Positions 1-60,481 of a stretch of 64,000 nt of DNA are shown in pieces. The position numbers and the translations under genes are program-made. The notes below the pieces were generated by a model. It saw only the letters and a list, made by a program, of their open reading frames with translations, had not been told where the DNA came from and did no database searches. The stretch is taken from contig CAWBQK010000011.1 in NCBI GenBank assembly GCA_963791045.1, forward strand, positions 128,001-192,000, written 5' to 3'. Position 1 is the stretch's first letter. Every line of letters begins with the position of its first letter. This DNA is from Candidatus Latescibacterota bacterium. Its GTDB lineage: Bacteria; Krumholzibacteriota; Krumholzibacteriia; WVZY01.

Positions 1-1404
1 ACACCCTCGGTGGAGGAACAGCAGCGTCTCTGCGATGTGCTGATCGTCCCCGATATGGAGAATGTCAACCTGTCCGACTTCGGCGAGGCGGGGATGATCA
101 TCGCCCGCGGCGAAGAAGCCGCGAGGGCGATCCTGCCGCGTCTGCAGGCGCTTGCCGATTCGTTGAACGCGCTATCACCATCGGCGCCGCCGGTCGAGCG
201 TACCCCGGTTGAGTCATTTCATCTCATCGGTGTGGATGTCGATGGTCTGCAGAACGTCTCCGAAAAGATCGTCCGGAGCGAATTGGGCATCCGGGTTCCA
301 AATTCGTTCAAACCCGAGGATATCGAGATCGCCGTTGGCCGCGTCTACGGGACGCAGCTCTTCGAGCGCGTCGACAGCCGTGTCGACGATTATGGAGACG
401 GATCGCGGCTGGTTGTGAAACTCAAGGAAAATACGGGAAACACGCTTGGAGTCGGCCTGCGATTTGATACGAGGCGAGATGCGTCTCTGCTCCTCGACGC
501 GAGTTTTCGGAATCAACTTGGCGGCGCGGGTACCCTGGCGTTGACCGCGATCATCCGCGATGAGTATGAGTTCGAGGCGAGATACTTCGCTCATCTCGGA
601 TTTATGCGTGCCCTCGGTGCGAAAGCACGTGTCGACGCGCGGAGAATCAATATGAACCTGCTCGAAGACGGCCAGGTGCAGGCTGGATTCCGGTCACATT
701 ATTATTTTGGTGAGCTCGCGTTGGGGTCTATTTTCTCGACCCGCATGTCCGTGGGCGGTGGCGCCCGTGTGGAGTATTTCAACAACGATGTGACTGTTGG
801 CTCTCCGGATCTCGATGATCGATCTGAGTTTTACATTCCGTTCTTCGCGTCAATCATTGTTGACTCCTTCGACCGCACGGTTTTCCCACGGTCCGGGGTG
901 TACGTTGAACTGACGGCGGAAGTCGCCGACGCCCACGTTGGGAGTGATTCGACTTTTTCCAGGATATTTTTTGATTGGCGCGCGGCGATTCGCGTGAGCA
1001 AATCGGTGTCGATCCTCCAGGATCTCTATGTTGGAACGGCCTATGGGTCGAACGTGCCCCTTGCCTACAATTTCTTTCTTGGCGGGAATGACGAGCGATT
1101 CACCCTTCTGGGAAAGGAACAATCGTTCCTAGGCGTGGAGCGCCAGGAGCGGGTTGGGCGCCACGCGCAACTGGTCAAGCTGGGTGTGCAGTGGGAAGTC
1201 CTTCACGGAAAGTACATTCAGGCCTTCTGGAACGCGGGGAACACGTTTGAAGGGGCCGAACTGGAGTTCGGTAAAGGCCGATACATTAACGGCGGAGGGG
1301 TCAATCTCGGAATGGATACCCTGCTCGGGCCCATCGAGTTTGCCATGATGACGAGTTCGATACACAACTTTTTGACATATTTTTCGTTTGGGTATAAGTT
1401 CTAG
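1..1404 (+). CDS. Patatin-POTRA-Omp85 (type Vd/PlpD-like) outer-membrane protein, 5'-truncated by the window
   Basis: N-terminal DVLIVPD...SDF...IIARGEEAA resembles the end of a patatin domain; POTRA-like segment (GLQNVSEK...VYGTQLFERV); barrel motifs DSFDRTVFPRSG, FFLGG, TLLGPI and C-terminal FSFGYKF. Confidence 0.8.
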   Translation, partial: TPSVEEQQRLCDVLIVPDMENVNLSDFGEAGMIIARGEEAARAILPRLQALADSLNALSPSAPPVERTPVESFHLIGVDVDGLQNVSEKIVRSELGIRVPNSFKPEDIEIAVGRVYGTQLFERVDSRVDDYGDGSRLVVKLKENTGNTLGVGLRFDTRRDASLLLDASFRNQLGGAGTLALTAIIRDEYEFEARYFAHLGFMRALGAKARVDARRINMNLLEDGQVQAGFRSHYYFGELALGSIFSTRMSVGGGARVEYFNNDVTVGSPDLDDRSEFYIPFFASIIVDSFDRTVFPRSGVYVELTAEVADAHVGSDSTFSRIFFDWRAAIRVSKSVSILQDLYVGTAYGSNVPLAYNFFLGGNDERFTLLGKEQSFLGVERQERVGRHAQLVKLGVQWEVLHGKYIQAFWNAGNTFEGAELEFGKGRYINGGGVNLGMDTLLGPIEFAMMTSSIHNFLTYFSFGYKF

Positions 1405-1425
1405 CAACGCATCAACTGGGAAGGG

Positions 1426-2553
1426 GTGATAAGCGTGGCCGTTGACGGCGAAGAACGGGTTCTTGGGAGAACATTGCCTCACATGCACCCGTGGGTCAGA
1501 TTCGGTCTCCTGCTCCTGCTTTTATACGCGTTTTTTGTCAGTATTTCGCTGATGGGCGCGTCGTTCAAATTTTTTGGCAAGGGGTTTGCCGAAAAGTTGC
1601 TTATGACGACGTCGAATCCCTTTGCGGGGTTGTTCATCGGCGTCCTTGCGACCAGTCTCGTTCAGAGTTCTTCCACGATCACGTCTATGGTCGTCGCTCT
1701 TGTTGCCGGCGGCGCGCTAAACGTTGCCGGGGCAATCCCGATTGTGATTGGGTCGAATATCGGGACGAGTGTCACCAACACGCTTGTTTCGATCGGACAC
1801 ATATCACGGCCCAGCGAGTTCCGGCGTGCGTTCGCCGCGGCGACGATCCACGACTTTTTCAACCTGATGGCCGTTCTCATTATATTCCCGCTCCAGCTCA
1901 TGACCAATTACCTCGGAGCGACATCCTCTTTTCTCTCCCATCGTCTCCAGGAGTCGGGCGGTTTTGAGCTCATCAACCCGTTGAAGCTCATCGTGAGTCC
2001 CTCGGTCAAAATGATAACGAAACTTACCGGGGAATCGGGAATCTTGATGCTCATAATTGCGGTCATTCTTTTGTTCGTCGCGTTGCGCTACATTGTTGTC
2101 AACTTGAAGGCGCTTGTAATCGGCAGGGTCGAGCAGTTTTTTGACAAGACCCTCTTCAAGAACAGTTTTACGGCGCTTTTGCTGGGTCTTGCACTGACGG
2201 TGATGGTTCAGAGCAGCTCCATCACGACCTCCCTGGTTGTTCCGTTGGCCGGTGCGGGGATTCTGACGCTCACGCAGATATTCCCATTCGCTTTGGGGGC
2301 AAACGTGGGAACGACGATAACGGCGATCCTGGCGTCGCTGGTCACGGGTAGCGAAGCGGCGGTAACCGTGGCGTTTGCCCATCTTTTTTTCAACTTGACG
2401 GGAATCGTGCTGGTCTGGCCGATAAAAAAGGTGCCGATATTTATGGCGGAGACGCTTGCGGCGGCCGCCTTGAAATCCAGGTGGATACCCCTTCTCTATA
2501 TATTAGTGGTGTTTTTCGCCATACCCGGACTTCTAATCTATTTTGTGAGGTGA
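1426..2553 (+). CDS. Na+/Pi cotransporter (NptA/SLC34 family)
   Basis: Two QSSS motifs plus GSNIGTSVT and GANVGTTIT; hydrophobic; start may be ATG at 1483. Confidence 0.9.
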   Translation: MISVAVDGEERVLGRTLPHMHPWVRFGLLLLLLYAFFVSISLMGASFKFFGKGFAEKLLMTTSNPFAGLFIGVLATSLVQSSSTITSMVVALVAGGALNVAGAIPIVIGSNIGTSVTNTLVSIGHISRPSEFRRAFAAATIHDFFNLMAVLIIFPLQLMTNYLGATSSFLSHRLQESGGFELINPLKLIVSPSVKMITKLTGESGILMLIIAVILLFVALRYIVVNLKALVIGRVEQFFDKTLFKNSFTALLLGLALTVMVQSSSITTSLVVPLAGAGILTLTQIFPFALGANVGTTITAILASLVTGSEAAVTVAFAHLFFNLTGIVLVWPIKKVPIFMAETLAAAALKSRWIPLLYILVVFFAIPGLLIYFVR

Positions 2554-2559
2554 TCGACT

Positions 2560-3237
2560 ATGTTCAGATTCAAAGAACTTATCGAATTGTGGAGGTCGGA
2601 CAACCTACTGACCCAGGCCTTGAACGACTCCAACATCATGCTCAAAAGCACCTACGAGATGTTCAAAGAATCGGTCCGATCGCTTCGCCAAAGCGATGGC
2701 GGCGAAATGGCGATGGACATCTATGAAAAAGACAGGATGGTCAATGAGTACGAACAGGAAGTGCGGCGTAAAGTGCTCAAGCATCTTGCCATCACCGGCG
2801 GGGTCAATATCATCCCGGGGTTGATCCTGACGAGCATCGTTATTGATATTGAGCGTATCGGCGATTACACAAAAAACATAATGGAACTGGCCGTGGCACA
2901 CCCCAAGAGGCTCGAAACGGGCCAGTTCGAGGAGGATGTCAAAAAAATAGAGGATGGTGTGACAAAACTTTTCGAAGAAATCATTCCCGTGCTCGAGACC
3001 TCAGACAAAGAAGCGGCCATCGCGCTCATTGACGACAGCCTGTGGATCATCGCGAAGTGCGACGCGATTGTCGAACATCTAATCAAAAACGAAATGCCGG
3101 AATTCACCACATCGACGGCCGTATCCGTGGCCATATACGTGCGATATCTCAAGAGGGTCGCCGCACACTTGAGAAATATCACATCGGGTATCGTCAACCC
3201 GTTCGAGCGAATCGGCTTCAGAGTGGAAGACGACTAG
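2560..3237 (+). CDS. PhoU-domain protein
   Basis: DIERIGDYTKNI and YLKRVAAHLRNI PhoU-like repeats; 6 bp after the Pi transporter. Confidence 0.85.
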   Translation: MFRFKELIELWRSDNLLTQALNDSNIMLKSTYEMFKESVRSLRQSDGGEMAMDIYEKDRMVNEYEQEVRRKVLKHLAITGGVNIIPGLILTSIVIDIERIGDYTKNIMELAVAHPKRLETGQFEEDVKKIEDGVTKLFEEIIPVLETSDKEAAIALIDDSLWIIAKCDAIVEHLIKNEMPEFTTSTAVSVAIYVRYLKRVAAHLRNITSGIVNPFERIGFRVEDD

Positions 3238-5854: not shown

Positions 5855-5905
5855 AAACGGCAGGGCCCGGGTGTCGCCCGGCGGGAGAGCGCCCTTCACG
5901 GCGCG

Positions 5906-6385
5906 CTAGATAAATGTTTTGAGAATTTGTTTGTGCATCCCCTGGAGTTCGTCGTACGCCTCGTTGATCTCCCCGATTTTTTCCTGAAGCTTCTTGAGGA
6001 GTTGTGACCTCTCCAGGCCATTCCGCACGATGATCAAAAGGTCATCGTTGTCCCAGGGTTTTTCAATATACTGGAAGAGCCCCACTTCATTGATTGCTTT
6101 GATCGCGTTTTCTTTGTCGGCATAACCGGTAAGAATGACGCGGGGGACATCCGGTCTTATCTTTCGCACTTCACCCAGAAAAGTGATTCCATCCATTTCC
6201 GGCATCAAGTAGTCCGACACGACCAGGTCGACGTCGTTGTCTTTGATAAAGGACAACGCTTCCTTTGGGTTCTTGAAACTTTTCACCACGTAATCGGTTT
6301 CCAGGTTGAGAAACGATTGAAGCGATGTAAGAACCATTTCCTCGTCATCCACGAGTATGATAACGGCCTGATTGCTTTCCGCCAT
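5906..6385 (-). CDS. Response regulator (receiver domain plus short coiled coil)
   Basis: LVDDE, SDYLMPEMDG (phospho-Asp), LTGY, KPW. Confidence 0.92.
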   Translation of the reverse strand: MAESNQAVIILVDDEEMVLTSLQSFLNLETDYVVKSFKNPKEALSFIKDNDVDLVVSDYLMPEMDGITFLGEVRKIRPDVPRVILTGYADKENAIKAINEVGLFQYIEKPWDNDDLLIIVRNGLERSQLLKKLQEKIGEINEAYDELQGMHKQILKTFI

Positions 6386-6399
6386 GAATTCCTCCTAGA

Positions 6400-7977
6400 T
6401 CATTGAATCGGCAATAATATACGAAATGTGGTTCCTTTTCCAACTTCACTCGTGACTTCAATCGATCCGTTGTTGTCCTGAACAATCTGGTACACGATGG
6501 ATAGCCCCAGCCCGGTTCCGACGCCCGACCCCTTTGTGGTGAACCCCGGATCGAATATCCGCTCGAGATCTTCGCTCGGGATCCCTTTGCCCGTGTCGCG
6601 GATTTCAACAACAACATTGTCATCCCGTGTGTATGTGTCCACGAAAATATCGCCTTTGCCCTCGATCGCCTGGCTCGCGTTGACGAGAATATTCATAAAA
6701 ACCTGGTTGATCTGGTTCGGGTAGCAGGTTACAGAGGGCAGCTTTCCGTAGTTCTTATGGACCTCTATCCGGTTTTTCAGTTCATGGTGGACCAGCGTGA
6801 GCGTGCTCTCGAGGCCTTCGTGGAGGTCGACCTTATCCTGTTCCGCCTCGTCGAGGCGCGCGAATTTTCTGAGGCTGCGGACGATACTCACGATGCGTTC
6901 CATCGCGTTTTTGTTGATGCTGTTCAGATCCTCGATGCTCGACATGATTTTCATCAGTCCCGGATCCTCGCGAATTTCGCAGGGTATCTCGGGCGCGTCG
7001 ATAATTAGTTTGAGTTTTGCGAGCGCGCGAATCAAAAGATCGTTATTGCTTTTGAGAGCGCCAAGCGGCGTGTTGATCTCATGGGCGACACCGGCGACGA
7101 GATGGCCGAGCGCCGCCATTTTCTCGGACTGAACCAGTTGGGTCTGTTTGTTCCGAAGTTCGAGCGTGCGCTCTTCGACTTTGCGTTCGAGGTCGGCGTT
7201 CGCCTTTTCGAGCTCTTTCTCGAGTTTCAGTCGTTCGGTCACATCGTGAACGACCTGGAGTTCCGACCACGTGTCATCGAGGTTTTTGTAATAGCTTATT
7301 GTGAACTGAAAAACCTTGCCGTCGGGGTAGTATCGCTCTTCGGCATAGACGCCCGTGTCGTCGACGGTGATATGTTTGCAGACCGAACAGTCGTCCGGAT
7401 GATCGAACCAGGTGTACTGTTTCCGCTCGCCTCCGTCCAGGCCGAACATTTCTTTCAACTTTTTGTTCTCGAACTCGACCACCGGCGCGGTGTTTATCCC
7501 TTTTCTCACACCAAGGCCCACGGGCATCATGTCGAGTATATGCTCGAAGTAATCGCGTTGAGCCGTGTGGAATCCCTCGAGCGTTCTTCTTTCCGTTACA
7601 TCGCGGCAGATCCTCTGGATGATCCTCTTATCACCGTATGAAATGACCGATGCGGTGACATCGACGGACAGGAGTTTTCCGGACTTTGTCAAAAAATGAA
7701 CGTCAACGCACGATCCGCCGCCCGTTGTGGAGACCTCTTTGAACAGTTTCTTCGCGGCCTCGTGTTCGGTGGAGGGGTGGGTCTCCCATGCTTTCATCCC
7801 AAGCAGTTCGGCTTCGTCGTATCCCGTCATCGCCACGGCTCTTGGGTTGGCCTCGAGAATCATTCCCGTATCGATGTCGATGGCGAAGATCGCATCACTC
7901 GCGTGCTCGATCATCTTGCGGTACTTTTCCTCGGATTCGCGAAGCTGCTCAAATTCTTTGTCGTTTATATTTGTCAT
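6400..7977 (-). CDS. Cytoplasmic PAS-domain sensor histidine kinase
   Basis: PAS/PAC region; AHEINTPL H-box; NILVNA, DTGKG, FTTK and GTGLGL boxes; no TM segment seen. Confidence 0.92.
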   Translation of the reverse strand: MTNINDKEFEQLRESEEKYRKMIEHASDAIFAIDIDTGMILEANPRAVAMTGYDEAELLGMKAWETHPSTEHEAAKKLFKEVSTTGGGSCVDVHFLTKSGKLLSVDVTASVISYGDKRIIQRICRDVTERRTLEGFHTAQRDYFEHILDMMPVGLGVRKGINTAPVVEFENKKLKEMFGLDGGERKQYTWFDHPDDCSVCKHITVDDTGVYAEERYYPDGKVFQFTISYYKNLDDTWSELQVVHDVTERLKLEKELEKANADLERKVEERTLELRNKQTQLVQSEKMAALGHLVAGVAHEINTPLGALKSNNDLLIRALAKLKLIIDAPEIPCEIREDPGLMKIMSSIEDLNSINKNAMERIVSIVRSLRKFARLDEAEQDKVDLHEGLESTLTLVHHELKNRIEVHKNYGKLPSVTCYPNQINQVFMNILVNASQAIEGKGDIFVDTYTRDDNVVVEIRDTGKGIPSEDLERIFDPGFTTKGSGVGTGLGLSIVYQIVQDNNGSIEVTSEVGKGTTFRILLPIQ

Positions 7978-8005
7978 CGTAACTGGTTGTTGAGAATGTG
8001 CTCCC

Positions 8006-8455
8006 TCAGGATCCGGGCTTTTGTCCGATGTCGACGCCCACCCTGTTCAGAAGTCCGCGCAATCGGCCGACGAGAGATTTCAGGACCCCCTCGATAATTT
8101 GGACGTGATCCGACAAGATGTCGAGAAAATCCTCGCGATAAATACGCAGAACGCGGGTTTCCTCCGTTGCCGTTGCCGTCGTGACCCTCGGAGTGTCGTC
8201 AAAAAGAGCCCAGGTGCCAAAGGCGTCTTTGGATGCGACGACGGCGATTTCCTCTCCATCCCGATCGAGTCGGACGGTCCCGTCGAGGACTACAAAGAGG
8301 GCGTCCGATGGGTCCTCATATTTGTAAATGACTTCGTCGGGCGCGTACGACGCCTCATCCGCGATGGCGGCAAGGTGGGAGAGCTGCTCGGTTGGAATAT
8401 CCGCGAACACTTCGACGTTCTGGAGAAAGATCACTTTTTCGATAATTGTGAGCAT
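8006..8455 (-). CDS. Stand-alone cyclic-nucleotide-binding (Crp/CAP effector-like) protein
   Basis: ATG at 8455 after AAAGGA; EKVIFLQNVEVF, LFVVLDGTV, FGTWALFDDTPRVTTATA. Confidence 0.85.
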   Translation of the reverse strand: MLTIIEKVIFLQNVEVFADIPTEQLSHLAAIADEASYAPDEVIYKYEDPSDALFVVLDGTVRLDRDGEEIAVVASKDAFGTWALFDDTPRVTTATATEETRVLRIYREDFLDILSDHVQIIEGVLKSLVGRLRGLLNRVGVDIGQKPGS

Positions 8456-8532
8456 CCGTTTTCCTTTTCTCTGGGACAATTTTGTTGTCACGCCGCGAGG
8501 ATCCGAGAGAACCCTCCCCGCGCCGCGGCCGG

Positions 8533-11286
8533 CTAGTTCCCCGTTACAAGAAGCGCCGTCTCCCTGACGACGGGGTGTGGATCCGTGGTTGAATCGACGA
8601 CCAATCGCCGAAGCGACTCCGGAGAGTCTTGCGTCGTACAGTAGATCGCACAGGACTTGAGCCACGGGTCGGTTCCGTTGACCAGGTGTTCGAGTGATTC
8701 ATTGACGTCTCTCAAGGACACGCCGAATAGTTCTCTGCCTTTTTGAATCTTCGCATCGGTGGTGATGTTGTCCATGATCGGGAACAGGTACTTTTTAAGA
8801 TCTTTTTTGAGGATATTGTCGAGGAACTCAACGGCACTCGCACGGATATCCTTCCTGGTACTCACGATTCCAAGATACGCGCTGTAAATTTCCCGCGCGT
8901 GAAAGCGAAGACCCAGAAGTCTGAATATCCGCTCGAGATTCTGATCTATCTTTTCTTCGAGGGCCTTAACGAGAAGCCTGCCTGCCGGAGTATCCGGATA
9001 GCCATCGACACTCAGGACCTGGAGAATCGTGTAGTAGGATCGGGTCTCGTCTATTAGCGTGTCGTTTATCGACTGGTGATCCATCTTGAGGTCGGCATAT
9101 CGGGAGTGCAGCGTATTGAGTGCCTTGATTATATAAAACTTGATTTCACCCTCGACCACGGGGAGAATCGTCGCGAGCGCGTCGACCGAAAACTGGCTCG
9201 GTATACGGCTCAGTACGCGGCAAAGCCGCCCGCGCAGCGGTACGGGGACGGTCCTGTCAACGATGTAATCGCCGAGGGTTCCGATCACACGTTCTCCATA
9301 AGCGACGAGCGCATCCTGAGCCGCGCGTCTGCTCCTCTTGTCGGACACGTGTTCGATGATGTGCTGCACATACTCGCGGTCGCCGGTTTTCCCCGCCGCA
9401 CGAATCGCGCGAGCCGTTACTTCTGGCGACGGGTCTTTCATCAATCTCAGGATGTGACCGCGAAAACCGGGCTTTGCCAGGTAGCCCAGCGCGTCGGCCA
9501 CCTGGCCCCTGACGAACACGCCGCTCTCGCCTTCGCTCTCCAGAAGCGCAGCTATGATGTCTTCGGTGACGAGGTTCCTCGCTTCGAGCGACGCGTCCTC
9601 AGCCGCACACCCGATGGCCGCGGCTCTTATACTCACGTCGGGGTCTTCGAGAAATGTCGCGAGGACATCGAGTTTTTCCGAACCGGCGTGCCGGCAAATA
9701 TAATTGATAGCGTCACGCTGTACTATTGGTGAATCGTCAGTGAGAAGTCCGCGCATCTCTTTTGTGAAATCACCATCCTGGTTCTGGAAAATCCGGGCGG
9801 CCCCGTGACGAACCAATTCCGACGGGTGGGCGAGGAGCGGTTTGATCGCGTCGACGATTTTCGGGTCGACTACATCGCCGAGCAGATCGAGCGCGTAAGC
9901 GATCTGGCGTTCGTTGTCACTTGCCAGCGATGATTCCAACGTTTTGAGTGTCGAGGCCTCGGTAATGTTGGTCCGGAGTTCCGCCGGATCGATTTCGCGC
10001 CGTTCGAGCGCTTTTCGGAACGCGTTGACATACTCCTTGCGGACGAGAAGAGTCAGCGCCAGCCAGATGGAGACAAATACCAGAACGACTATGCTGATCT
10101 CGCGAACGCCGAATGCGAGGACATTCACCAGGAGAAGCAAGATCAGACCGGCAATTCCTCTGAACCACCGATCGACAAACATATCGATAAAGATTTTTGT
10201 TCTCTTTTTGACCTCGAGAGGGACGGGGAGAAAGAGAAGTTCACGCCCCGTCTTATCGATCGAGTATCTAAACACGCCGTCCGACCCTTTGACAAGAATT
10301 CCCGCGAGGAGCCCCGGATAGATGAGCATCGCGATGGTTCCGCCAAGAAGACCGAGCGGGAGAAACATAATGACGCCACCCACGCCAAGCACCCTGAGCA
10401 CCCGGTAGCTGAAGAGCAGTTGAAAAACAAACGCGAGCAGACTCAAGCGGCCGTAAAACTGGCCGAGAAACGATGTGAGTTCCTGTTTTGTGGGAAAGGC
10501 CTCGAGTGAGACCGTTTTGAACTGAAAGTCGACAAAGGTTCCGGTCGCCATGGTCATTGCGATGATGCCGACGATGAGCATCAGGTGACGCGATCTTTTG
10601 AGCGTCCGGAATATTTCCGCGTAGCTCTCCTTCTTCTCGTCTCTGTCCCTGCTCCGCGTGGGGCGGGGGAGTTCATGTTCACCGCGGCGCTTGAGTGTCC
10701 AGACGGCATTGACCAGCAGCATGCAGACGGCCAGAAACACCATACAGAAAAAGAGGAGATTTTCGGTCGATACATTCAGATGAGTGATGACCAGGCTTGT
10801 GATTTCACCGCCCGAGAACGCGCCAATGATACCGCCGAGGCCAAAAAGAACGAACAACCGTTTGGCCTGTGTCGCGTCGAAAACGGCATTGGCGAACAGC
10901 CAAAACTGCGAGGTGGAGAGCGCCCCGTAGATGCTTACCCACACATAAAAGAGATAGAACACCCACGGCTCTTGAAAGGTGAGAAGCCATCTCAATATGA
11001 ACAAGTTGACGATCAGTATCAGCGCCGTGGCGTTTATCAGCTGGTTGAGTTTGAGCGATCGGCTGGCGCGAGAGTAAAGCGTGGTCACCGGAACGACTAT
11101 TACCGCGATCAGAATAAAAACGAGCGGGAGCTGATGCGCTCCGAGTTTGACGAGAAAGAGGCTGTCCCTCGCTGGTTTCAAGAAGTAATAGGTGACGAGG
11201 AGCAGGTAGTAATAAAAGAACATCAGGAGAGTCAGTGTGACCTCTCCCTTTCGGATGTCGATTATCGAGGCAAAGAAGCGTTTCAT
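8533..11286 (-). CDS. NTT (Npt1/TLC ATP/ADP-translocase-like) MFS transporter fused to HEAT repeats
   Basis: YFLKPARDSLFL, QFWLFAN..FD..QAKRLF, RYSIDKTGRELLFLP, K.FID.FVDR; C-terminal HEAT repeats (LAHPSELVR, DDSPIVQR, DPDVSIR, DPHPVVRETA). Confidence 0.85.
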   Translation of the reverse strand: MKRFFASIIDIRKGEVTLTLLMFFYYYLLLVTYYFLKPARDSLFLVKLGAHQLPLVFILIAVIVVPVTTLYSRASRSLKLNQLINATALILIVNLFILRWLLTFQEPWVFYLFYVWVSIYGALSTSQFWLFANAVFDATQAKRLFVLFGLGGIIGAFSGGEITSLVITHLNVSTENLLFFCMVFLAVCMLLVNAVWTLKRRGEHELPRPTRSRDRDEKKESYAEIFRTLKRSRHLMLIVGIIAMTMATGTFVDFQFKTVSLEAFPTKQELTSFLGQFYGRLSLLAFVFQLLFSYRVLRVLGVGGVIMFLPLGLLGGTIAMLIYPGLLAGILVKGSDGVFRYSIDKTGRELLFLPVPLEVKKRTKIFIDMFVDRWFRGIAGLILLLLVNVLAFGVREISIVVLVFVSIWLALTLLVRKEYVNAFRKALERREIDPAELRTNITEASTLKTLESSLASDNERQIAYALDLLGDVVDPKIVDAIKPLLAHPSELVRHGAARIFQNQDGDFTKEMRGLLTDDSPIVQRDAINYICRHAGSEKLDVLATFLEDPDVSIRAAAIGCAAEDASLEARNLVTEDIIAALLESEGESGVFVRGQVADALGYLAKPGFRGHILRLMKDPSPEVTARAIRAAGKTGDREYVQHIIEHVSDKRSRRAAQDALVAYGERVIGTLGDYIVDRTVPVPLRGRLCRVLSRIPSQFSVDALATILPVVEGEIKFYIIKALNTLHSRYADLKMDHQSINDTLIDETRSYYTILQVLSVDGYPDTPAGRLLVKALEEKIDQNLERIFRLLGLRFHAREIYSAYLGIVSTRKDIRASAVEFLDNILKKDLKKYLFPIMDNITTDAKIQKGRELFGVSLRDVNESLEHLVNGTDPWLKSCAIYCTTQDSPESLRRLVVDSTTDPHPVVRETALLVTGN

Positions 11287-12543
11287 CGTGACGAGTGCGC
11301 CGCAGTTGCGGGGATGATTATCTGTTCGATGAGTACGGCCGGAGTGTTTGACTTGTCCGGCACTTCATAAACATCGATAGTGATTGCCTCCGAGGATACC
11401 CGAACAAGGCAATAATTGTATACCACGTCTTGTTTTATGTTCGCCACATCAAACCCATATTCCATATAGGCCAGGGACTGCTCCGCCATTTGCTTTTCGT
11501 TGGCGCCGGGTTGAAGCGGTGAGCCCGCCCCACCGCTTATGAGGACGTGCATGTCCGCCGCGAGCGGAGTGTCGTCGACCGCATTCAAAACATTATGTTC
11601 GTAGAGGTGCTGGTGGCTCGAGATGACCGTCTGCACACCGTGCTCGACAAGAAGATCGATGAGCGCCCGGCGCTTCTCGACGATGTTCCTCCCGTTCGCC
11701 GGGTCCGTCCAGTTGCCGTAGTGCCCCGCGAATACCAATGGCGGATGGTGCATGACGATTACCTTGAATGTTTTGTGGCTTGCGGAAAGCTCATTCTCGA
11801 GCCACGCGGGTTCGCCGCCGCTGCTTACAAACCATTTCTCGAACAGCTCGTCCTGGAGATCGTCATCCATGAGCTGGTGTTGATCGATAATGATATCCGA
11901 ATCGACGACAAAGAAATCGGCGTCCGGGGTTTTAAAAACATAAAACGGCTCGTAATCAAAAACCGCTTTGTAATTGGGCATTCCATAAACCGAATCGTTT
12001 GCGTGTTCGTGATTCCCGATGACCGGCAAAAGCGGGTATTCGAGAACGAGCGGGACTTCGAACTTGTTCTGATCGATAAAAGATTTCCACATGTGAGGGT
12101 AACGGCCGTCGGTCGCGATGTCGCCGAGATGCATGATGAAATCAACAGAGGAGCGTTTCGCTTCAGAATAAACGGCGTCCCGCACACGGCGCGCCTGTTT
12201 ATCGCCGTAGTCGGGGACGTTACGGATACCGTTGACACCGCCGATGGCTCCGTTGCCCAGCCAGTACATCTGATAGACGGGAATCAGAATCTGCTTCCAT
12301 GTCCACCAGTTCTTTTTGCGGTAGAACGACTCCTTGACTCGCCAGCCGGGGCGGCTGTCCCCGTAGAAGATGAAGGTTGGATTGTGGGGAAGCGAATTGG
12401 TCTCCAACAGACGTGGTATCTCGTAATAGTCGGGGGAATACGTGTCGCTGAGCAGCCCTTTGCCGGCGACGGGCCGGCCCCCCCATCGCGGTGCAAACGC
12501 ATATGGTCATAATTATGAGACGTGTCGAGCCGGCGAGGGTCAT
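11283..12543 (-). CDS. Secreted calcineurin-like metallophosphoesterase; apparent frameshift in G7 tract near the 5' end
   Basis: GDSR, LGDI, GNHE, MHHP, SHQH motifs. ATG at 12543 has an AAAGGA SD and a signal-peptide-like start that joins the 11283-12407 frame if one G is removed at 12478-12484. Confidence 0.8.
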
Positions 12544-12739: not shown

Positions 12740-13405
12740 ATGTCGTATGCCAGCGGCAGCCATCCGATTCTTCACAACCTTTTTGTCTTACCGAAGTCTA
12801 ACGATTTGACGTTGGGAAATAACTTGGTGGAACCTAGCGATCGAGAATTGGCATCCCGAGCCCAGAAGGGAGACACCGGTGCTTTTGAGGTGTTGGTACA
12901 TCGTTATGACGGAAAGGTGCTCTCGATCGCACATTCTTTTACCAACGACCCGGACGACGCGAAAGACATTTATCAGGAAGTATTCTTAAGGGTGTACAGG
13001 GCCCTTCCGGGGTTTCGGTTTGGAAGCGAATTTTCAACTTGGCTACACAGGATTGTCATGAACGTTTGTTTAAGTCATAAGAGAAAGAAGTCGGCCTCGT
13101 CTCATGCGCCGCTCGACGCCGTGCCCGAACGCGAGATCGATGAGGGCCAGGGCGGTCTTATCTCGGGATCGAGGACAATTTCTCCGGACCGGCTTGCGCA
13201 TGATGATGAAATCAGACGATACGTCAGCGCCGCGGTTGAAACGCTTTCACCAAAAGAGAAGCTTGTTTTTACGCTCAAGCATTTTGAGGGGTACAAGATC
13301 CGCGAGATAGCGGAAATCATGGGATGTGGTGAGGGGACGGCAAAGCGATACCTGTTCACCGCCGTTGAAAAAATGAGAAACAAACTCAAGAGAGTTTATC
13401 GTTAG
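12740..13405 (+). CDS. ECF-type sigma-70 factor
   Basis: GDTGAFEVLV, DAKDIYQEVF, FSTWLHRI, region-4 EIAEIMG; true start possibly 12824 or 12827. Confidence 0.92.
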   Translation: MSYASGSHPILHNLFVLPKSNDLTLGNNLVEPSDRELASRAQKGDTGAFEVLVHRYDGKVLSIAHSFTNDPDDAKDIYQEVFLRVYRALPGFRFGSEFSTWLHRIVMNVCLSHKRKKSASSHAPLDAVPEREIDEGQGGLISGSRTISPDRLAHDDEIRRYVSAAVETLSPKEKLVFTLKHFEGYKIREIAEIMGCGEGTAKRYLFTAVEKMRNKLKRVYR

Positions 13406-13424
13406 GAGCCCAAGAGGCAGACCG

Positions 13425-14450
13425 ATGAAACACGACACCTTCAAAGAATTGATGCGGCTGGCGGTTCTCGACGAGCTCGGCGAAGAGGGGCGGAAGTCTC
13501 TCGAGGGGCATCTCGATGATTGCGCCGAATGCAGAGCCGAGTTCGTGGAGCTCGAGTCGCTCGTGACATTGGTTGGGGAAAGCAGGGCAGCCGAACCATC
13601 AGATGAAATGTTGTGGGAGGCACGCCGGAATCTTAGCGCGGCGCTGGCGGATGAGCCCGTGCCTGGCGTTCAACCGGCGGAGTCGCTATTAAAACGTCTG
13701 ACGCAGGGCATGGCGTGGTCAGGTTCGCGCTCTGCTGTTTCCCCGACCTCTGGAGTTTCAAGCTGGGTCCGCGGTTTCCGCGTGACGTTTGCCGGTGCGG
13801 CGGCCGTGGCGGCCGGCGTTCTTATCGGGTATCTCGCCTTTGGGCGGGTGGCCCCCTCTGCCGTGGATCCGACGCCGGTTGAAACGACACAGCTGGACGA
13901 CCTATTGGGTAAACCAAATTACCGGAATGTGCGGTTCGTGAACGTCGATCCGCGCAATGGCGAAGTTGAGTTCGAGTACGATGTTGTAAGGCCCGCGCGG
14001 TTCAAGGCGGGGATTGATGACAAGCGGGTTCAGCGCCTGCTGGCCAACGTCGTGACAAGCGAAGGCAACCCGGGGGCGCGGCTGGAAGCGATCAACACCA
14101 TCGGGGCTTATATCGAAGAGCCCAAGGATGACAAGATCAAGCAGGCGCTCGTCCATGCAGCTCGATTCGACGCCAACCCGGGTGTGAGAAAGCACGCGTT
14201 GTACGTTCTCTATCAAATGCCATTCGATGACGATATAAAAGAAGCCTGCCTGCATGTTTTGGGCAATGACAATAATGCTGGGTTGCGGATTGCGGCGATA
14301 AACATCCTCGCCGCGGCGACCCTGGATGGACATCTCGAAAACCGGGATCTCTCCGACGCCGTCGGAGCAGACCTCGCGCGCGATGAGAACAAGTTTATCA
14401 AAACTCAGTACGGAGAGTTTCTACAGGAGGTGAACGGCAATGGTGAATAA
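13425..14450 (+). CDS. Zinc-finger (ZAS) anti-sigma factor with TM helix and C-terminal HEAT-like domain
   Basis: HLDDCAEC (HxxxCxxC); one TM; repeated NPG.R..A HEAT-like motifs; follows the ECF sigma. Confidence 0.8.
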   Translation: MKHDTFKELMRLAVLDELGEEGRKSLEGHLDDCAECRAEFVELESLVTLVGESRAAEPSDEMLWEARRNLSAALADEPVPGVQPAESLLKRLTQGMAWSGSRSAVSPTSGVSSWVRGFRVTFAGAAAVAAGVLIGYLAFGRVAPSAVDPTPVETTQLDDLLGKPNYRNVRFVNVDPRNGEVEFEYDVVRPARFKAGIDDKRVQRLLANVVTSEGNPGARLEAINTIGAYIEEPKDDKIKQALVHAARFDANPGVRKHALYVLYQMPFDDDIKEACLHVLGNDNNAGLRIAAINILAAATLDGHLENRDLSDAVGADLARDENKFIKTQYGEFLQEVNGNGE

Positions 14451-15591
14451 ACAGCTGCGATACGGTCTGATGATCGTCTCGGCGTTTGTCATCCTCGCGT
14501 TCGTTGCGGTAACGGCGGGCGATGCAGACACTAAAGACAAATCATTCCCCGTGAAGAAGGGTGGAACCCTTATCGTAGATATCGAGAATGCCGGCGCGGA
14601 TATTCTTGTCAACACGTGGAGCAAAGGTGAAGTCCACGTGCAGGTTATGGGAATTTCCGGCGACGATCTCGGCGATCTCGATATGAGTGAAAGCGGCAAC
14701 ACGGTAACCGTCGAGTTCTACGGAGAGGGCGGATGGGGTAGATCGCGTCAGATGCGGTTTACGATCAGTGTTCCCGAGGCTTTCAATCTCGATCTCTCGA
14801 CTTCGGGTGGCGACATCGTGGTCAGTGACCCGATAAAGGGCGATGTCGAAGCGGCGACTTCCGGTGGAGATGTCGAAGTCGATGTGGTTGATGGAAAGCT
14901 CAGACTTAAAACCTCGGGCGGCGATATTTCCGCTGAAGATGTTCTCCAGGACGCGTCGCTCAAGACTTCTGGCGGCGACATCGAAGTTGGAAACGTCAAA
15001 GGCGAACTCTCGGCGGCAACGGCCGGTGGTGATATCAATATCGGCACGGTTGATGCGGATCTCAGCGCCGCGACGGCGGGTGGCGACATTACAATCCTCA
15101 ATGTCGGCGGGAACGCGAAAATCGCGACGGCCGGCGGTGACATCGAGGTCGGCGAGGTTTCGGGGAGCGCCACTCTCAAGACGGCCGGAGGAGACATCGA
15201 ACTTGGCGGCGCGAGCGGAACGGTAGCGGCGAAGACGGCCGGTGGCGACATCGAATGTTTCAAGATCACCGGATCCGTTGATGCGGCGACCGCCGGCGGC
15301 GATGTCTACGCGGAGCTCGATCCCAAAGGGAACCAGGCGAGCAGTCTCGAGACCAGTGGTGGTGACGTGACGCTCGTGATACCCGCGGGAGCCGACGCGA
15401 CTATCGATGCGCGGATCCGTCTGCGGGGACGCCACTACGACGAAGAAGATTACGACATTACCTCGGATTTCAAGGCCAAGTCGCACGACAAGACTTCCAA
15501 GGATATCCAGGCGAGTTACGTGCTCGGAAAGGGTGGTCCGCGGATCACGCTGGACACCGTCAACGGCAACATTGAGATTAGGAAAAAGTAG
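14440..15591 (+). CDS. DUF4097-type beta-strand repeat (adhesin-like) exported protein
   Basis: Signal peptide; about ten T(S/A)GGD(I/V) repeats at ~19-aa spacing; ends TVNGNIEIRK. Confidence 0.85.
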   Translation: MVNKQLRYGLMIVSAFVILAFVAVTAGDADTKDKSFPVKKGGTLIVDIENAGADILVNTWSKGEVHVQVMGISGDDLGDLDMSESGNTVTVEFYGEGGWGRSRQMRFTISVPEAFNLDLSTSGGDIVVSDPIKGDVEAATSGGDVEVDVVDGKLRLKTSGGDISAEDVLQDASLKTSGGDIEVGNVKGELSAATAGGDINIGTVDADLSAATAGGDITILNVGGNAKIATAGGDIEVGEVSGSATLKTAGGDIELGGASGTVAAKTAGGDIECFKITGSVDAATAGGDVYAELDPKGNQASSLETSGGDVTLVIPAGADATIDARIRLRGRHYDEEDYDITSDFKAKSHDKTSKDIQASYVLGKGGPRITLDTVNGNIEIRKK

Positions 15592-43266: not shown

Positions 43267-43305
43267 AACTAACTGATTTACATACATTGGGTTTCATGAT
43301 ATAAT
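43267..43305 (+). promoter_or_regulatory. Sigma70 promoter of the paralog array with upstream AACTAACTGATT motif
   Basis: TTTACA(43277)-N17-TATAAT(43300) with TGn extension. Confidence 0.75.
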
Positions 43306-43414
43306 GGTCAATGAAAGCAACGGGAGCGATCATCTTTTTGCTCATGTCCTCACGCGTTCCCGCCGCGGTCACGATTTCCCTTTGACAGTTGAAGTCGACC
43401 GAAGGAGGAGCAAA

Positions 43415-46400
43415 ATGAAAATCCATGTTGTGGTCGTTTGGTGTGTGGTATTTGCCTTTATCTCGGCGGCCGGTGTCGTCGACGCCAAAAACACCAAAGG
43501 CAAGTACGCGAACTACAACTTTTTTGAACTCCCACAGTCATCGGCTAACCCCCCGGAAATCGGTAATTCGATGTTCAAGGCCGCGGCCGCAGGCACAACG
43601 GTGCTGGGTTGGTGGCAGTTCGATTCGGCGACCGGAACTCCAGACGAGCAGGGATGGACCGTCGTCGACAAAACCGCCCAAACCAAAACATATTTTCATG
43701 TCGATGGACCGCTGTGCAGCGGCGCTACAGCGATCAACGGCGCGCAGTCGATGTGGTGTGGTCAGTGGTCGAATTCGGGCATCCCCTGGTGCGGATGGAA
43801 TGCGCTTCCCGGCTACGGCAATAATTGGGAACAGCGCCTGGTCTCGCAGGAGATCGATATGCCCGCATCGATGACCTACACGGCCGTTTGGGACTGCGAG
43901 CCGGGTTATGATTACATGTATGTGGAATACTGGGATGATGTGAGCCTGCAGTGGGTCGAGATCGCGACGATCAACGGCGGACAGGGATCGTACGACGGCT
44001 CGGGCGGTCCGACCATCGAAACCGTCGCGGCGGCAGCGACGACGACCACCCGATTCCGTTTTCACTTTGTATCGGATGGGGCGTGGAGTGACGAGGATGG
44101 GTTGTGGCCGACTACCGAGGGCGCTTTCAAGGTTGATGATATCTCGACGACCTACGGCGCCGGTCCGACGGTGACCGCGGAGAACTTTGAGGGAGAATCG
44201 TGCGACGCGCTTGCGTCCGACGATGGTTTCTGGACGGCTGAACCGGCACCCGGTTTTGGCGTGTACGGTCATCTCGCATCGGGAGCCTCGATCGTCCAGG
44301 AAGATCCGTGCGCAAGACCTTTGTCAAATCTCTGGGGTTTCTTTGATGATCCCCTGATAACCAATTATGCCTGTGGCGGCTTCCCGCTTCAAGGCGCGAT
44401 GCCCTTCGGCCCGGACGACCAGGGGCTTTATTTGCATAATGAAATCTTTTCGCCGTGGGTGCCGATAACGGGAAGCGGGTCGCAGTACCGCTTTGAGTAC
44501 CTCACCTACCGTGACCTTCCTCTGGACAACCTCCAGTTTTACACCTGGGCAGTTCGAACACGTGACGCGAGCGGCTGTCCGACGAACTGGCAAGATTTTT
44601 CTTTTGTCTACTACGGCGGGCAGAAAGACTGGCTTCGGGCGACGTTTGACGTGGGTTCCATGGTTCCCGGATATGCCGTGGATATTCAGGTGTCGATCGG
44701 AGCGTACGACGGCTGTGTTGTGTGGTGCGGGATCTATGGGACGGGCGCCTGTCACAGCCATGCGCCGGTTCTCGACCAGGTCAAGATCATGCGAGTCGAT
44801 GTTCAGGGCCCGCAGTGGAACGTCCGTCACATCGATTTGTGGCAGGACAATTTCCCCGATGAGGGCGGCGTTGACCCGGCGACAAGCTATGCGCGTTGTG
44901 ACATGGCGATAGACGTAATGCCCAACACCACCTGCAAGATTCTCCCCGGTGACTCTCTGGTCGTCGAAGTAACCGATCCGAACGGTCTGGCGAGCGACAA
45001 CACCGGAGGCCGTGCCGGCCCCGCCGTTTATGCTTTCGTCAAAGTGACGGATCGTTTTGGCAATCCAAAGGCGGGCAAGAGTGGTCTGGCCATCCAGTCG
45101 CCGGACAACCAGTCGTACAGTGGCGATACGAGCGCGGGACTCCTTCGGTGGCCTTTTGTGCCCGGAGTCGCCCCGGCCGGCTGGGACGCCTACCGGATGG
45201 ACGAAGTATTCACCGCGGGTGGGGGTCTCGTGAGTGACCGTTTCTGCGTCGACCTTATGGATCTTGGGACGGGCGCAACGGGGCCGCACTACAATCATGT
45301 CAATGAGAACGTGGTGGCCAATACCGGTATTTTCACGCCGGGTGACGTAATCAACTACGTTCTCGCCGCTCAGAACTCACTGGGTCAATGGAGCTACCTG
45401 TATCGAACGTTCAACGGTCAGGGCACCATCACACGGACGACCAGCGTGAACGAGGCCATTGCCGATCCTATGGAATGGTCGGTACTCCCCGACGCGGGAC
45501 TTCTCCCCGGCGATGAGGGTGACATTCTTTTTGTCGACGACGCCGACGACCGCGGCGGCCCCGCGCAGTTGTATTTCGACTGGGCGTTCAGGTATCTGAA
45601 TATCGAGGACCGTGTCGATCGATTCGACGTCCTCGGCCCCTCCTCCGCTGTTGGAAACAGCCTGGACTCGCGTGTGAAAAACTTCTTCCAGCAGATGATT
45701 GGTGATCCCGTTGAAATTTATCAAAAAGTCCTGTGGAACTCGAGTGACCTTAGCTCGGGCCTGATGGGTGACGGCGGTTCGGCCTGCGGCGGAAGCGGAC
45801 CCATGAAAGAAAACGACTATGCGCTCGCTGATGTCTTCCTGCTCTACCACGGGGACAATCCAGGTTGGGCGGCGTGGGGTGACGACATGGCCGAAGAATG
45901 GTCAGGGCTCACGGGGGCCGGTGCGGTCAACGTGAAGAGCGTCTGGATGAACCACGCGCTGGTCGGCGGCAGTCATGTTCTTCTCGGCGAAGCCGTTTCG
46001 CCCGTCGTGTATCAAAACACCGGTTCCCCGATCGGCCCTGTATCGATGCTCGCTTATGGGGGCTGTGCCGTTATTAACGACTTCGACGTCCTGTCCGCCA
46101 CCGGCGCTGCGTTCGATGCGATGTCATACGGGGCCGTAGACGCCGCCAATGCCGCCGTCGTGGCTCAGGCGACAGGTAACCACGTCGGCACAACGGCTCG
46201 ATACGTACTGGCGGGTTTCGGGTTCAACTACATCCGTTCCGACGGATTGGGCGGTCCACCGGATAACGTGACACACCTGCGTGACATTCTTATTTTCTTC
46301 CAGAACATCATCGACGAGCCGATCGGCATCGATCCGGTGGCGTTCTCGAACTCACTCGACAACGCGTATCCGAACCCCTTCAACCCGTCGACGACGATAA

Positions 46401-46627
46401 AATACACAATCGCCGAGCGCGGGCACGTGAGCCTGAAGATCTACAACGCGGCGGGACAACTGGTTCGCAACCTCGTCGACGAGATGCAGTCGCCGCAAGA
46501 GGTCGGATTCTCGAAGACCTGGAGCGGCATGAACGACCAGGGCCAGCCGGTCTCGAGTGGCGTGTATTTCTATAAATTGACTGCGCAGAACTTCACACAG
46601 ACGAAGAAGATGGTTCTTCTGAAGTAG
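43415..46627 (+). CDS. Large Cys-rich secreted protein with FlgD-Ig/T9SS-A-like C-terminus (copy 1, intact)
   Basis: AAGGAGG SD, signal peptide; EPGYDY...RFRF.FVSDGAWSDEDG beta-sandwich-like region; ILFVDD region; NAYPNPFNPST...SGVYFY...KKMVLLK. Confidence 0.85.
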   Translation: MKIHVVVVWCVVFAFISAAGVVDAKNTKGKYANYNFFELPQSSANPPEIGNSMFKAAAAGTTVLGWWQFDSATGTPDEQGWTVVDKTAQTKTYFHVDGPLCSGATAINGAQSMWCGQWSNSGIPWCGWNALPGYGNNWEQRLVSQEIDMPASMTYTAVWDCEPGYDYMYVEYWDDVSLQWVEIATINGGQGSYDGSGGPTIETVAAAATTTTRFRFHFVSDGAWSDEDGLWPTTEGAFKVDDISTTYGAGPTVTAENFEGESCDALASDDGFWTAEPAPGFGVYGHLASGASIVQEDPCARPLSNLWGFFDDPLITNYACGGFPLQGAMPFGPDDQGLYLHNEIFSPWVPITGSGSQYRFEYLTYRDLPLDNLQFYTWAVRTRDASGCPTNWQDFSFVYYGGQKDWLRATFDVGSMVPGYAVDIQVSIGAYDGCVVWCGIYGTGACHSHAPVLDQVKIMRVDVQGPQWNVRHIDLWQDNFPDEGGVDPATSYARCDMAIDVMPNTTCKILPGDSLVVEVTDPNGLASDNTGGRAGPAVYAFVKVTDRFGNPKAGKSGLAIQSPDNQSYSGDTSAGLLRWPFVPGVAPAGWDAYRMDEVFTAGGGLVSDRFCVDLMDLGTGATGPHYNHVNENVVANTGIFTPGDVINYVLAAQNSLGQWSYLYRTFNGQGTITRTTSVNEAIADPMEWSVLPDAGLLPGDEGDILFVDDADDRGGPAQLYFDWAFRYLNIEDRVDRFDVLGPSSAVGNSLDSRVKNFFQQMIGDPVEIYQKVLWNSSDLSSGLMGDGGSACGGSGPMKENDYALADVFLLYHGDNPGWAAWGDDMAEEWSGLTGAGAVNVKSVWMNHALVGGSHVLLGEAVSPVVYQNTGSPIGPVSMLAYGGCAVINDFDVLSATGAAFDAMSYGAVDAANAAVVAQATGNHVGTTARYVLAGFGFNYIRSDGLGGPPDNVTHLRDILIFFQNIIDEPIGIDPVAFSNSLDNAYPNPFNPSTTIKYTIAERGHVSLKIYNAAGQLVRNLVDEMQSPQEVGFSKTWSGMNDQGQPVSSGVYFYKLTAQNFTQTKKMVLLK

Positions 46628-53300: not shown

Positions 53301-53627
53301 CAGAACATCATCGACGAGCCGATCGGCATCGATCCGGTGGCGTTCTCGAACTCACTCGACAACGCGTATCCGAACCCCTTCAACCCGTCGACGACGATAA
53401 AATACACAATCGCCGAGCGCGGGCACGTGAGCCTGAAGATCTACAACGCGGCGGGACAGCTGGTTCGCAACCTCGTCGACGAGATGCAGTCGCCGCAAGA
53501 GGTCGGATTCTCGAAGACCTGGAGCGGCATGAACGACCAGGGCCAGCCGGTCTCGAGTGGTGTGTATTTCTATAAATTGACTGCGCAGAACTTCACACAG
53601 ACGAAGAAGATGGTTCTTCTGAAGTAG
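50371..53627 (+). CDS. Large secreted paralog (copy 3), several frameshifts
   Basis: GGAGG SD; MKKVFLVSLCVIF signal peptide; pieces 50408-50977, 51044-52684 and 52581-53627 tile copy 1. Confidence 0.8.
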
Positions 53628-59769: not shown

Positions 59770-59872
59770 AAGTTCCTCGATTACCAAATTAGGACGAAGG
59801 GATTTCAAGAATGATTGTATCAACCGGATGCTCGCGCACCCACGAGAGACATTGCTGCCAACGGCGTGCGTG

Positions 59873-60286: not shown

Positions 60287-60481
60287 GCCTGTCTCTTTCT
60301 CAGATGTTGTCGATCCTCCGATGTGGAAAATCCAGAGGGGCTGATTTTGTGAATATAATAAAAACCGTCGCCGCTGACAAGAGTTAAACAGCCGCTTGAG
60401 ACAATCAAATTTACTAAATTTCTTGAGAAACATCAATTATTATATGCAGGCGATTACTGCGGCGACGGAACAGGCCAACTA

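Follow-up and report, generated by a model that had tools for sequence, protein, structure and literature searches.

The window analysed here, a 64,000-nt stretch of a Candidatus Latescibacterota contig (GenBank CAWBQK010000011.1, forward-strand positions 128,001 to 192,000), carries in its 5906..12543 region five open reading frames (ORFs) that lie head to tail on the minus strand and encode a metallophosphoesterase, an NTT-family transporter with C-terminal HEAT repeats (NTT-HEAT), a protein of the cyclic-nucleotide-binding (cNMP) fold, a histidine kinase and a single-domain receiver. The best explanation of these sequences and of the corresponding loci in relatives is that the five genes form one operon-like unit, which would be the local, reduced version of a module present in many bacterial lineages. 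The reading favoured here for that unit, to which we assign a probability of roughly 45%, is a nucleotide exchanger that, with its cNMP-fold subunit, would be wired to a dedicated two-component pair, with an exported phosphatase acting on the periplasmic side.

An alignment of 25 relatives of the window transporter was used to retrieve 80 loci from species-representative genomes, 70 of which encode NTT-HEAT in full length (850 aa or more). A database search gave 894 relatives of the transporter at E <= 1e-3 among the candidates that were scored; those that are named come from Latescibacterota, Zixibacteria, KSB1 and similar lineages, and identity to the window's copy ranges from 33 to 69% across lineages. 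ORFs were called in every locus and compared with the window proteins by blastp, and the neighbouring genes were clustered; two of the resulting clusters (C14 and C17) were dropped as antisense shadows of the cNMP and receiver genes. Counts for the cNMP gene refer to the 69 informative loci, which have at least 700 nt downstream of NTT-HEAT or carry a fusion, those for receiver and kinase to 57 loci with at least 3 kb downstream, those for gene order to 56 loci with both flanks, and those for the esterase to 65 loci. Loci whose NTT is at least 37% identical to the window's are treated as the window's clade, and those below that value as the distant clade, which comprises 15 loci from Balneolaceae, Bacteroidales and Nitrospira.

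The five co-directional, tightly spaced genes described in an earlier reading of the sequence alone were confirmed, with a 4-bp ATGA overlap at 11283-11286 followed by gaps of 77, 28 and 14 nt, and a purine-rich stretch precedes each start at the junctions of the operon. The domain assignments of this sequence-only reading agree with Pfam, all matches lying above the curated cut-offs except that to HisKA, which falls slightly under (25.6 bits against 26.9). The same reading had named a lack of conservation in other genomes as the observation that would count against it, and the arrangement was found to recur: the complete five-gene order is present in 7 of the 56 loci (L001, L003, L006, L008, L020, L024 and L025), and NTT-HEAT, cNMP, kinase and receiver occur together in 37 of them. 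Between positions 5000 and 13500 there was no excess over shuffled sequence of either terminator-like signals (14 versus 10.3 ± 3.6) or promoter-like signals (8 versus 4.6 ± 2.7), and an Rfam search of positions 5000-14000 returned no riboswitch or RNA motif at E <= 1. Promoter-like hexamers (TTGGAA and TATATT/TATTAT, 16-18 nt apart; 6414..6443, minus strand) lie in the 3' end of the kinase gene, just before the receiver start; hexamers like these are no commoner than in shuffled sequence.

Table 1. Coordinates of the features of the five-gene region, as positions in the 64,000-nt window.
Feature	Position	Strand	Details
Single-domain response regulator	5906..6385	-	159 aa; Response_reg 95.7 bits, 2.5e-27
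Phospho-acceptor Asp58 of receiver	6212..6214	-	Invariant
PAS-HisKA-HATPase kinase	6400..7977	-	525 aa, soluble; PAS 51.5 bits, HATPase_c 91.2 bits
H-box His299 in DHp	7081..7083	-	H-E-I-N-T-P box conserved in 16 aligned orthologues
cNMP-fold protein	8006..8455	-	149 aa; cNMP_binding 66.9 bits (cut-off 27.5), 1.6e-18
Phosphate-binding cassette FGTWAL...PRVTTA	8174..8221	-	FGTWAL itself at 8204..8221
NTT-HEAT protein	8533..11286	-	917 aa; TLC 67.4 bits, HEAT_2 80.1 bits
NTT (TLC-type) membrane domain	10009..11286	-	Residues 1 to about 426; Pfam TLC 1.4e-18
Cytoplasmic HEAT-repeat domain	8533..10008	-	Residues about 427-917; HEAT_2 1.5e-22, also HEAT and HEAT_EZ
Metallophos ORF	11283..12407	-	374 aa from TTG start; Pfam Metallophos 51 bits, 3.1e-13
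Esterase body including homology beyond the TTG	11283..12482	-	Same frame; tblastn of relatives ends at 12482
G7 homopolymer at frame break	12478..12484	-	Sole G/C run of 7 in the 64-kb window
Signal-peptide-like N-terminal piece	12483..12543	-	ATG at 12543; frame other than that of the enzyme body

The membrane half of the transporter is identified by its match to PF03219 (TLC), which covers residues 92-419 with a score far over the cut-off of 21 bits, and by phmmer matches to the solved plastid NTT1 (9j3j, E 1.1e-15, residues 106-426; 9j3n, E 5.8e-9), while the HEAT half finds alpha-Rep HEAT-like repeat proteins among PDB sequences. The membrane domain is thus homologous to those of the canonical NTT ATP/ADP translocases, the plastid NTT1 and the Npt/Tlc proteins of Chlamydia and Rickettsia; unlike these, the window protein has an additional HEAT domain of 490 residues and belongs to a free-living lineage. 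According to the available portion of the paper by Major, Embley and Williams (2017; PMC5381601), NTTs are nucleotide antiporters, the characterised ones being importers in intracellular bacteria, and NTT-HEAT proteins have a wide distribution that takes in cyanobacteria and Chlamydia, with no member of assigned function; a domain for binding cyclic nucleotides (cNBD) is encoded a few nt downstream of NTT-HEAT, or fused to it, among the NTT-HEAT and NTT-HEAT-cNBD proteins of free-living bacteria, cyanobacteria, Chlamydiae and oomycetes, and cAMP-dependent tuning of ATP uptake was proposed. The window shares with this NTT-HEAT(-cNBD) clade both the joint NTT and HEAT polypeptide and the cNMP gene, here 77 nt downstream. 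No functional study of NTT-HEAT was found in the literature. L053, L059, L061, L064, L069, L070, L073 and other loci of the distant clade have a second NTT gene, whose product of about 446 aa has no HEAT repeats, immediately upstream of NTT-HEAT.

The most constant partner of the transporter is the cNMP gene, which is present in all 69 informative loci, as an adjacent gene on the same strand in 54, as a fusion to the HEAT C-terminus in 7 and otherwise nearby in 8; in Nitrospirales it stands within the kinase-receiver string and not behind the transporter. In the window, the separate gene with a Shine-Dalgarno sequence of its own, as read from the sequence, was confirmed, the ATG being preceded by AAGGAAAA. 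Most often, the cNMP domain has its own gene behind NTT-HEAT (54/69), an arrangement already described in the available portion of PMC5381601. When longer proteins were searched with the cNMP profile, 29 matched at E <= 1e-10, nearly all of them NTT-HEAT-cNMP or HEAT-cNMP proteins, and none of the 29 contains a kinase or receiver domain. The profile of the cNMP alignment also matches the domains of PKG and PKA-R, down to E 9e-37, and the register of the phosphate-binding cassette was confirmed on PKG.

Across 62 sequences (the window's, the 54 separate genes and the 7 fused C-termini) the cassette follows the consensus F-G-[T/V/A]-W-A-L-F-D-x-x-P-R-[V/L]-x-[T/S]-A, with Gly (G80 in the window) in 60, Trp in 59 and Arg (R90) in 58 of them. 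In canonical domains, the cassette Glu after F-G contacts the ribose 2'-OH. At this position Glu was found in 0 of the 62 sequences, which instead have Thr (38, including Thr81 of the window), Val (11), Ala (6) or others (7). The sequence-only reading had noted FGTWAL where Crp-type domains have FGE; this is no peculiarity of the locus, the change being family-wide. Because the phosphate-binding Arg is kept and the ribose-binding Glu is lost, the ligand of the cNMP-fold protein is probably a small molecule that bears a phosphate and is bound unlike canonical cAMP or cGMP.

A kinase with the same core of DHp and catalytic domain (DHp-CA) was found in 37 of 57 loci, attached to sensor parts that vary widely: none at all, one membrane anchor, PAS, PAS-PAS, PAS-GAF-PAS-PAS (Nitrospirales) or 7TMR-DISM. 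The window kinase, which runs PAS, second PAS-like region, DHp and catalytic domain, is one of the PAS-PAS type, of which 16 were aligned, and kinases with 7TMR-DISM are located directly upstream of the transporter in 11 loci. Most telling are the cores that are sensor-less or anchor-only (270-323 aa overall). Soluble DHp-CA kinases of 270-283 aa with no sensor lie downstream of the transporter in L019, L039 and L071, and kinases about 300 aa long, whose N-terminus has one hydrophobic segment, lie immediately upstream of it in L037, L040, L043, L048, L051 and L060; five of these six upstream kinases precede an NTT-HEAT-cNMP fusion, and several are translationally coupled to it. As a sensor-less kinase requires input from a partner, the adjacent transporter complex is the obvious candidate. 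The relay from transporter, HEAT and cNMP proteins to the kinase that had been proposed from the sequence is made plausible by these kinases, the argument being one of synteny.

The receiver, found in 41 of 57 loci, follows the clade division closely, with 41 of the 42 loci of the window's clade (the exception being L027) and 0 of the 15 of the distant clade. Over the aligned copies, identity to that of the window is 55-79%; in 36 sequences, whose mean column identity is 69%, residues D13, D14, D58, T86 and K109 do not vary; and the domain is followed by a conserved helical tail of about 40 residues and by no output domain. CheY, DivK and Spo0F are single-domain response regulators, and the window receiver resembles them in having all five catalytic residues with no output domain; unlike them, it carries the helical tail, which aligns with the linker of neighbouring REC-PP2C paralogues. 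The best 120 longer relatives of the receiver are mostly REC-PP2C proteins, together with REC-sigma54 activators, hybrid kinases, HD-GYP proteins and one REC-TIR; the best-scoring longer relative, P0149 (413 aa, E 8.9e-94), combines receiver and TIR domains. We found no receiver-clade-specific docking surface on the HEAT domain when 51 sequences of the receiver-bearing clade were compared with 19 of the clade that lacks it, in stretches of 20 residues, and a complex prediction of HEAT (residues 425-917) and the cNMP-fold protein with the receiver as scored partner gave ipSAE values of 0.00 and 0.00, which count neither way.

In the favoured reading, the core consists, by homology, of an inner-membrane NTT-family transporter with a C-terminal cytoplasmic HEAT solenoid of about 490 residues and a dedicated cNMP-fold protein, which the gene fusions suggest docks on the HEAT C-terminus as a regulatory or sensing subunit. 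Conserved synteny points to the kinase and the output-less receiver as a cognate pair dedicated to this transporter unit. The kinase core would read the state, in occupancy or flux, that the transporter/HEAT/cNMP complex is in, as UhpB reads UhpC, with the PAS domains of the kinase contributing a cytoplasmic input, and the phosphorylated receiver would be the diffusible output, whose targets may include the transporter itself. On the other side of the membrane, the phosphoesterase, which resembles purple acid phosphatases (PAPs) and is a predicted exported lipoprotein in relatives, would act on periplasmic phosphoesters of the same nucleotide traffic.

A known parallel is the UhpC-UhpB-UhpA system of E. 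coli, in which UhpC is a transporter homologue that senses for the histidine kinase UhpB. As there, the gene for a relative of an MFS-fold transporter is accompanied by those for a kinase and a response regulator, and some of the relatives' kinases are sensor-less; unlike there, the window transporter is separated from the kinase by a HEAT scaffold and a cNMP-fold subunit, the window receiver has no DNA-binding output, and the two systems have no sequence relationship. The NTT-HEAT/cNBD pairing itself is already published (PMC5381601), and the available portion of that paper describes this pair alone, with no mention of the kinase, receiver, REC-PP2C, exported phosphoesterases, Omp85-like barrel or kinase-fold lipoprotein considered here. 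The literature was found to describe neither the conserved signalling pair nor the kinases without a sensor, nor the cassette altered throughout the family, nor the neighbourhood with the kinase-fold lipoprotein. The survey gives the NTT-HEAT family defined candidate partners where only a domain fusion stood before, namely the cNMP-fold subunit, the kinase core, the conserved receiver, exported phosphoesterases and, in many lineages, a kinase-fold lipoprotein, and if the transporter does signal to the kinase, this would be a new transporter-coupled sensing system.

The least constant member of the unit is the esterase, which lies directly upstream of NTT-HEAT in 11 of 65 loci and which, as assembled in the window, is either broken or mis-assembled. 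The end of the unit had been placed at 12543 from the sequence, and a signal-peptide-like ATG does exist there, although it is not in frame with the Metallophos ORF. Because the homology of relatives ends at 12482, inside the G7 run, the leader reaches the enzyme solely through a one-base frame change, and if the run were shorter by one G, leader and enzyme would form a single protein of about 419 aa. The break may be an assembly slip, a real mutation or a slippage site. Elsewhere in the window, an AcrB-like gene extends over at least three frames (60417..63999, minus strand, with stops at 62002-62004 and 61456-61458) and a CcmE domain is divided over two frames that overlap (58849..60436, minus strand), and these genes may be pseudogenes or assembly errors; their breaks are not at homopolymers of at least 6, and they therefore do not decide for or against an assembly error at the G7 run.

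Eleven close relatives of the esterase, 37-62% identical and 410-431 aa long, have an in-frame lipoprotein leader, which is hydrophobic and ends in the lipobox Cys followed by a K/R-G-L-V motif; at the aligned position of this Cys the window sequence has Val. For the window copy, the proposal that the esterase is exported requires read-through of the frame break. The metal motifs G-D, G-D-x-x-x-D-G, G-N-H, H-H and H-x-H show little or no variation among the 12 aligned sequences. The AF2 model (pLDDT 83.1) has its best PDB matches in purple acid phosphatases (E 1.3e-13, TM 0.69 on target), which are also the closest solved sequences (E 1.4e-4), and the cyclic-nucleotide phosphodiesterase Rv0805 (3ib7; E 9.2e-8, TM 0.51) comes after some 30 PAP entries (1e-13 to 2e-10), in a group of further matches that also includes PhoD, GpdQ and sphingomyelinase-like enzymes, an order of fold matches that does not fix the substrate. 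The model leans towards a phosphomonoesterase rather than a cyclic-nucleotide esterase, and the suggestion that the esterase acts on a (cyclic) nucleotide is weakened by this fold, with PAPs nearest and Rv0805 further away, and by its presence in so few loci.

The mammalian purple acid phosphatase type 5 (1ute, 5uq6) is the best match of the esterase in both sequence and structure, and the dinuclear-metal motifs are present, although identity is just 14%. Purple acid phosphatases are defined by a Tyr metal ligand in the second motif (G-D-x-x-Y), and the window esterase, with G-D-I-A-T-D-G, is without it. The esterase also differs in having an insertion, hydrophobic and conserved, that is about 45 residues long (12210..12347, minus strand), which is rich in Trp and Tyr, lies between the first two metal motifs and is modelled as a low-confidence helix (pLDDT about 45-54); this could be a membrane-associating segment.

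The neighbourhood of the module in relatives contains a further protein family, a lipoprotein about 575 aa long that matches nothing in Pfam (cluster C4), which was detected by hidden Markov model (HMM) in 36 of 80 loci and in 30 of the 49 loci of at least 20 kb. It is accompanied by an Omp85-like barrel protein (about 446 aa; 35 of 80 loci by HMM), usually in the order Omp85-like, C4, (esterase), NTT-HEAT, and otherwise as a pair convergent downstream. When C4 of L024 (7018-8718) was aligned with 32 homologues, the lipobox Cys was invariant in all 33 sequences, as were the Lys of an IKFD strand, the Asp and Asn of H-x-D-x-K-x-x-N and the Asp of D-F-G. The AF2 model (pLDDT 87.7) matched only kinase folds in the PDB, with Fam20C (E 9.3e-5, probability 0.99-1.0) and H. 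pylori CtkA (probability 1.0, TM 0.47-0.56 on target) as best matches, at TM-scores to kinases that are low (0.21-0.30) on the query. Searched against PDB sequences, the C4 profile gave only weak, chance-level matches to repeat proteins, so that the kinase fold is seen by structure alone, and a protein atlas returned 'hypothetical' clusters only, with Fam20C (0.79) and HipA (0.78) as sub-threshold leads. The window itself contains neither C4 nor the relatives' Omp85-like gene (HMM at E <= 1, and tblastn), and it also lacks PAP2 and REC-PP2C, which are present in 21 of 80 loci by HMM and in 10 loci, respectively.

Two unrelated Metallophos families belong to the module, one per clade, the second being present in 12 of 80 loci, where proteins about 1,250 aa long combine it with an Omp85 barrel. 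Such fusions of an N-terminal metallophosphoesterase to a C-terminal Omp85 barrel, about 1,170-1,270 aa long, are encoded beside NTT-HEAT and cNMP in L052, L053, L059, L061, L065, L075 and L079, and are reminiscent of passenger-barrel secretion. A relationship of C4 to the middle of these 1,250-aa fusions was considered and discarded, as hmmsearch found none. In Calditrichia, a class-B acid phosphatase, a TonB-dependent receptor and a nucleotide pyrophosphatase are encoded near the module.

Several points weigh against the favoured reading. The contacts between the module proteins are inferred from comparative genomics, and the synteny of the surveyed loci is partly inherited, so that the conserved receivers are not 41 independent events. 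The window transporter scores 56.6 bits on TIGR00769, the NCBIfam family of NTP/NDP exchangers, for which the cut-off is 387.2, and with a score so far under it nucleotide transport by the window protein is an extrapolation. Since the 15 loci of the distant clade have neither kinase nor receiver, the signalling pair is an addition to the core and does not belong to it. Among the best 120 longer receiver relatives, no protein has a HEAT, TLC or cNMP domain, and so no such fusion ties the receiver to the transporter. The esterase, moreover, is present in few loci and frame-broken in the window.

Two alternatives concern the direction of nucleotide traffic, import fitting the phosphoesterase and uptake genes of some relatives and ATP export fitting the kinase-fold lipoprotein of many. 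Import, the least doubtful of the alternatives and yet in our estimate improbable, is what the sequence-only reading had proposed: the exported esterase would trim an extracellular (cyclic) nucleotide, NTT-HEAT would import or sense the product, and the HEAT and cNMP proteins would relay it to the kinase and receiver, in a scavenging-and-sensing system. Such a system is consistent with the secreted phosphoesterases and outer-membrane uptake proteins that recur near the module, including the PAP2 and second Metallophos families, the class-B acid phosphatase, TonB-dependent receptor and type I nucleotide pyrophosphatase that follow the receiver co-directionally in L039, L057 and L071, and the TonB-dependent receptors upstream in L009, L010, L013 and L014, and with the Na/Pi cotransporter and PhoU gene 2.7 kb beyond the receiver in the window. 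Free nucleotides are scarce outside host cells, however, which counts against it, as do the rarity of the esterase and the greater nearness of its model to the monoesterases of the PAP type than to Rv0805, the products of a monoesterase (nucleoside and phosphate) not being substrates of NTTs; the kinase-fold lipoprotein of 36 loci would also be left without a role. It is nonetheless import that the characterised NTTs of intracellular bacteria carry out, according to the available portion of PMC5381601. Less probable still is that the transporter runs in the opposite sense, with ATP out and ADP in, and energises phosphoryl transfer in the periplasm, in many relatives by the Fam20C-like lipoprotein, paired with the Omp85-type barrel; we also consider it unlikely, and to the same degree, that within such a scheme the exported phosphatase is an opposing or clean-up activity and the cNMP-fold protein and kinase-receiver pair meter export to the energy state. 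C4, with its conserved kinase-type residues and predicted kinase fold, argues for this export, as does the recruitment of two unrelated Metallophos families, one in each clade, and the gradient in a free-living cell would presumably favour ATP efflux. NTTs are nucleotide antiporters in the available portion of PMC5381601; the literature yielded no paper linking NTTs to periplasmic ATP or kinases. Exported ATP would leak through porins, the low TM-scores of C4 tell against it, its kinase activity, location and nucleotide use being predictions, and because the window has no C4 (nor the matching Omp85-like gene), export at this locus rests on extension from the relatives. If true, export would parallel in bacteria the way in which the secretory pathway of eukaryotes is supplied with ATP, and would challenge the view of an ATP-free periplasm, with a bearing on energy-requiring chemistry outside the cytoplasmic membrane.

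The wiring could also run the other way, with the PAS domains of the kinase sensing a cytoplasmic cue and the phosphorylated receiver, perhaps with the liganded cNMP-fold protein, binding HEAT and gating the transporter, which we regard as no likelier than ATP export. A receiver that has no output domain can act only through binding to a protein, HEAT solenoids serve as scaffolds for protein binding, most of the module's kinases have sensor domains of their own, and cNMP-dependent tuning of transport was proposed in the available portion of PMC5381601. Against it, the sensor-less kinases of nine loci have no evident input but a partner protein, no receiver-HEAT fusion was found among the best 120 longer receiver relatives, and no region of the HEAT domain is conserved solely in the receiver-bearing clade. 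It is because of the sensor-less kinases that signalling from transporter to kinase is favoured, and the two directions, control of the transporter by the receiver and signalling from transporter to kinase, could both hold together. Very improbable, finally, is that kinase and receiver are mere neighbours serving a pathway unrelated to the transporter operon. The receiver subfamily is promiscuous (with PP2C, sigma-54 activator, HD-GYP, TIR and kinase outputs) and the distant clade does without the pair, two points in favour of this; against it, the receiver lies within 6 kb in 41 of the 42 loci of the window's clade, through several gene orders and strands, and is kept in Latescibacterota, Krumholzibacteriia, Zixiibacteriota, KSB1, Calditrichia, Nitrospirales, Acidobacteriota, Eiseniibacteriota and Fibrobacteraceae.

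Three further regions of the window were recorded. At 12740..15591 (plus strand), separated from the esterase by a gap of 196 bp and divergent from it, are genes for an ECF sigma factor, an anti-sigma protein with zf-HC2 and HEAT repeats and a DUF4097 protein; the sigma/anti-sigma pair is also upstream in the close relatives L002, L006 and L025, probably as inherited synteny. At 1..3237 (plus strand), 2.7 kb past the receiver gene, an Omp85_2-family outer-membrane protein whose 5' end is off the window, the Na/Pi cotransporter and the PhoU-domain protein stand in a row as a phosphate-uptake set, of which the Omp85_2 gene was not matched by the HMM of the relatives' Omp85-like family. Type IX secretion sorting domains end two proteins encoded at 43304..46624 and 52581..53624 (plus strand), which is consistent with an organism of the FCB group.

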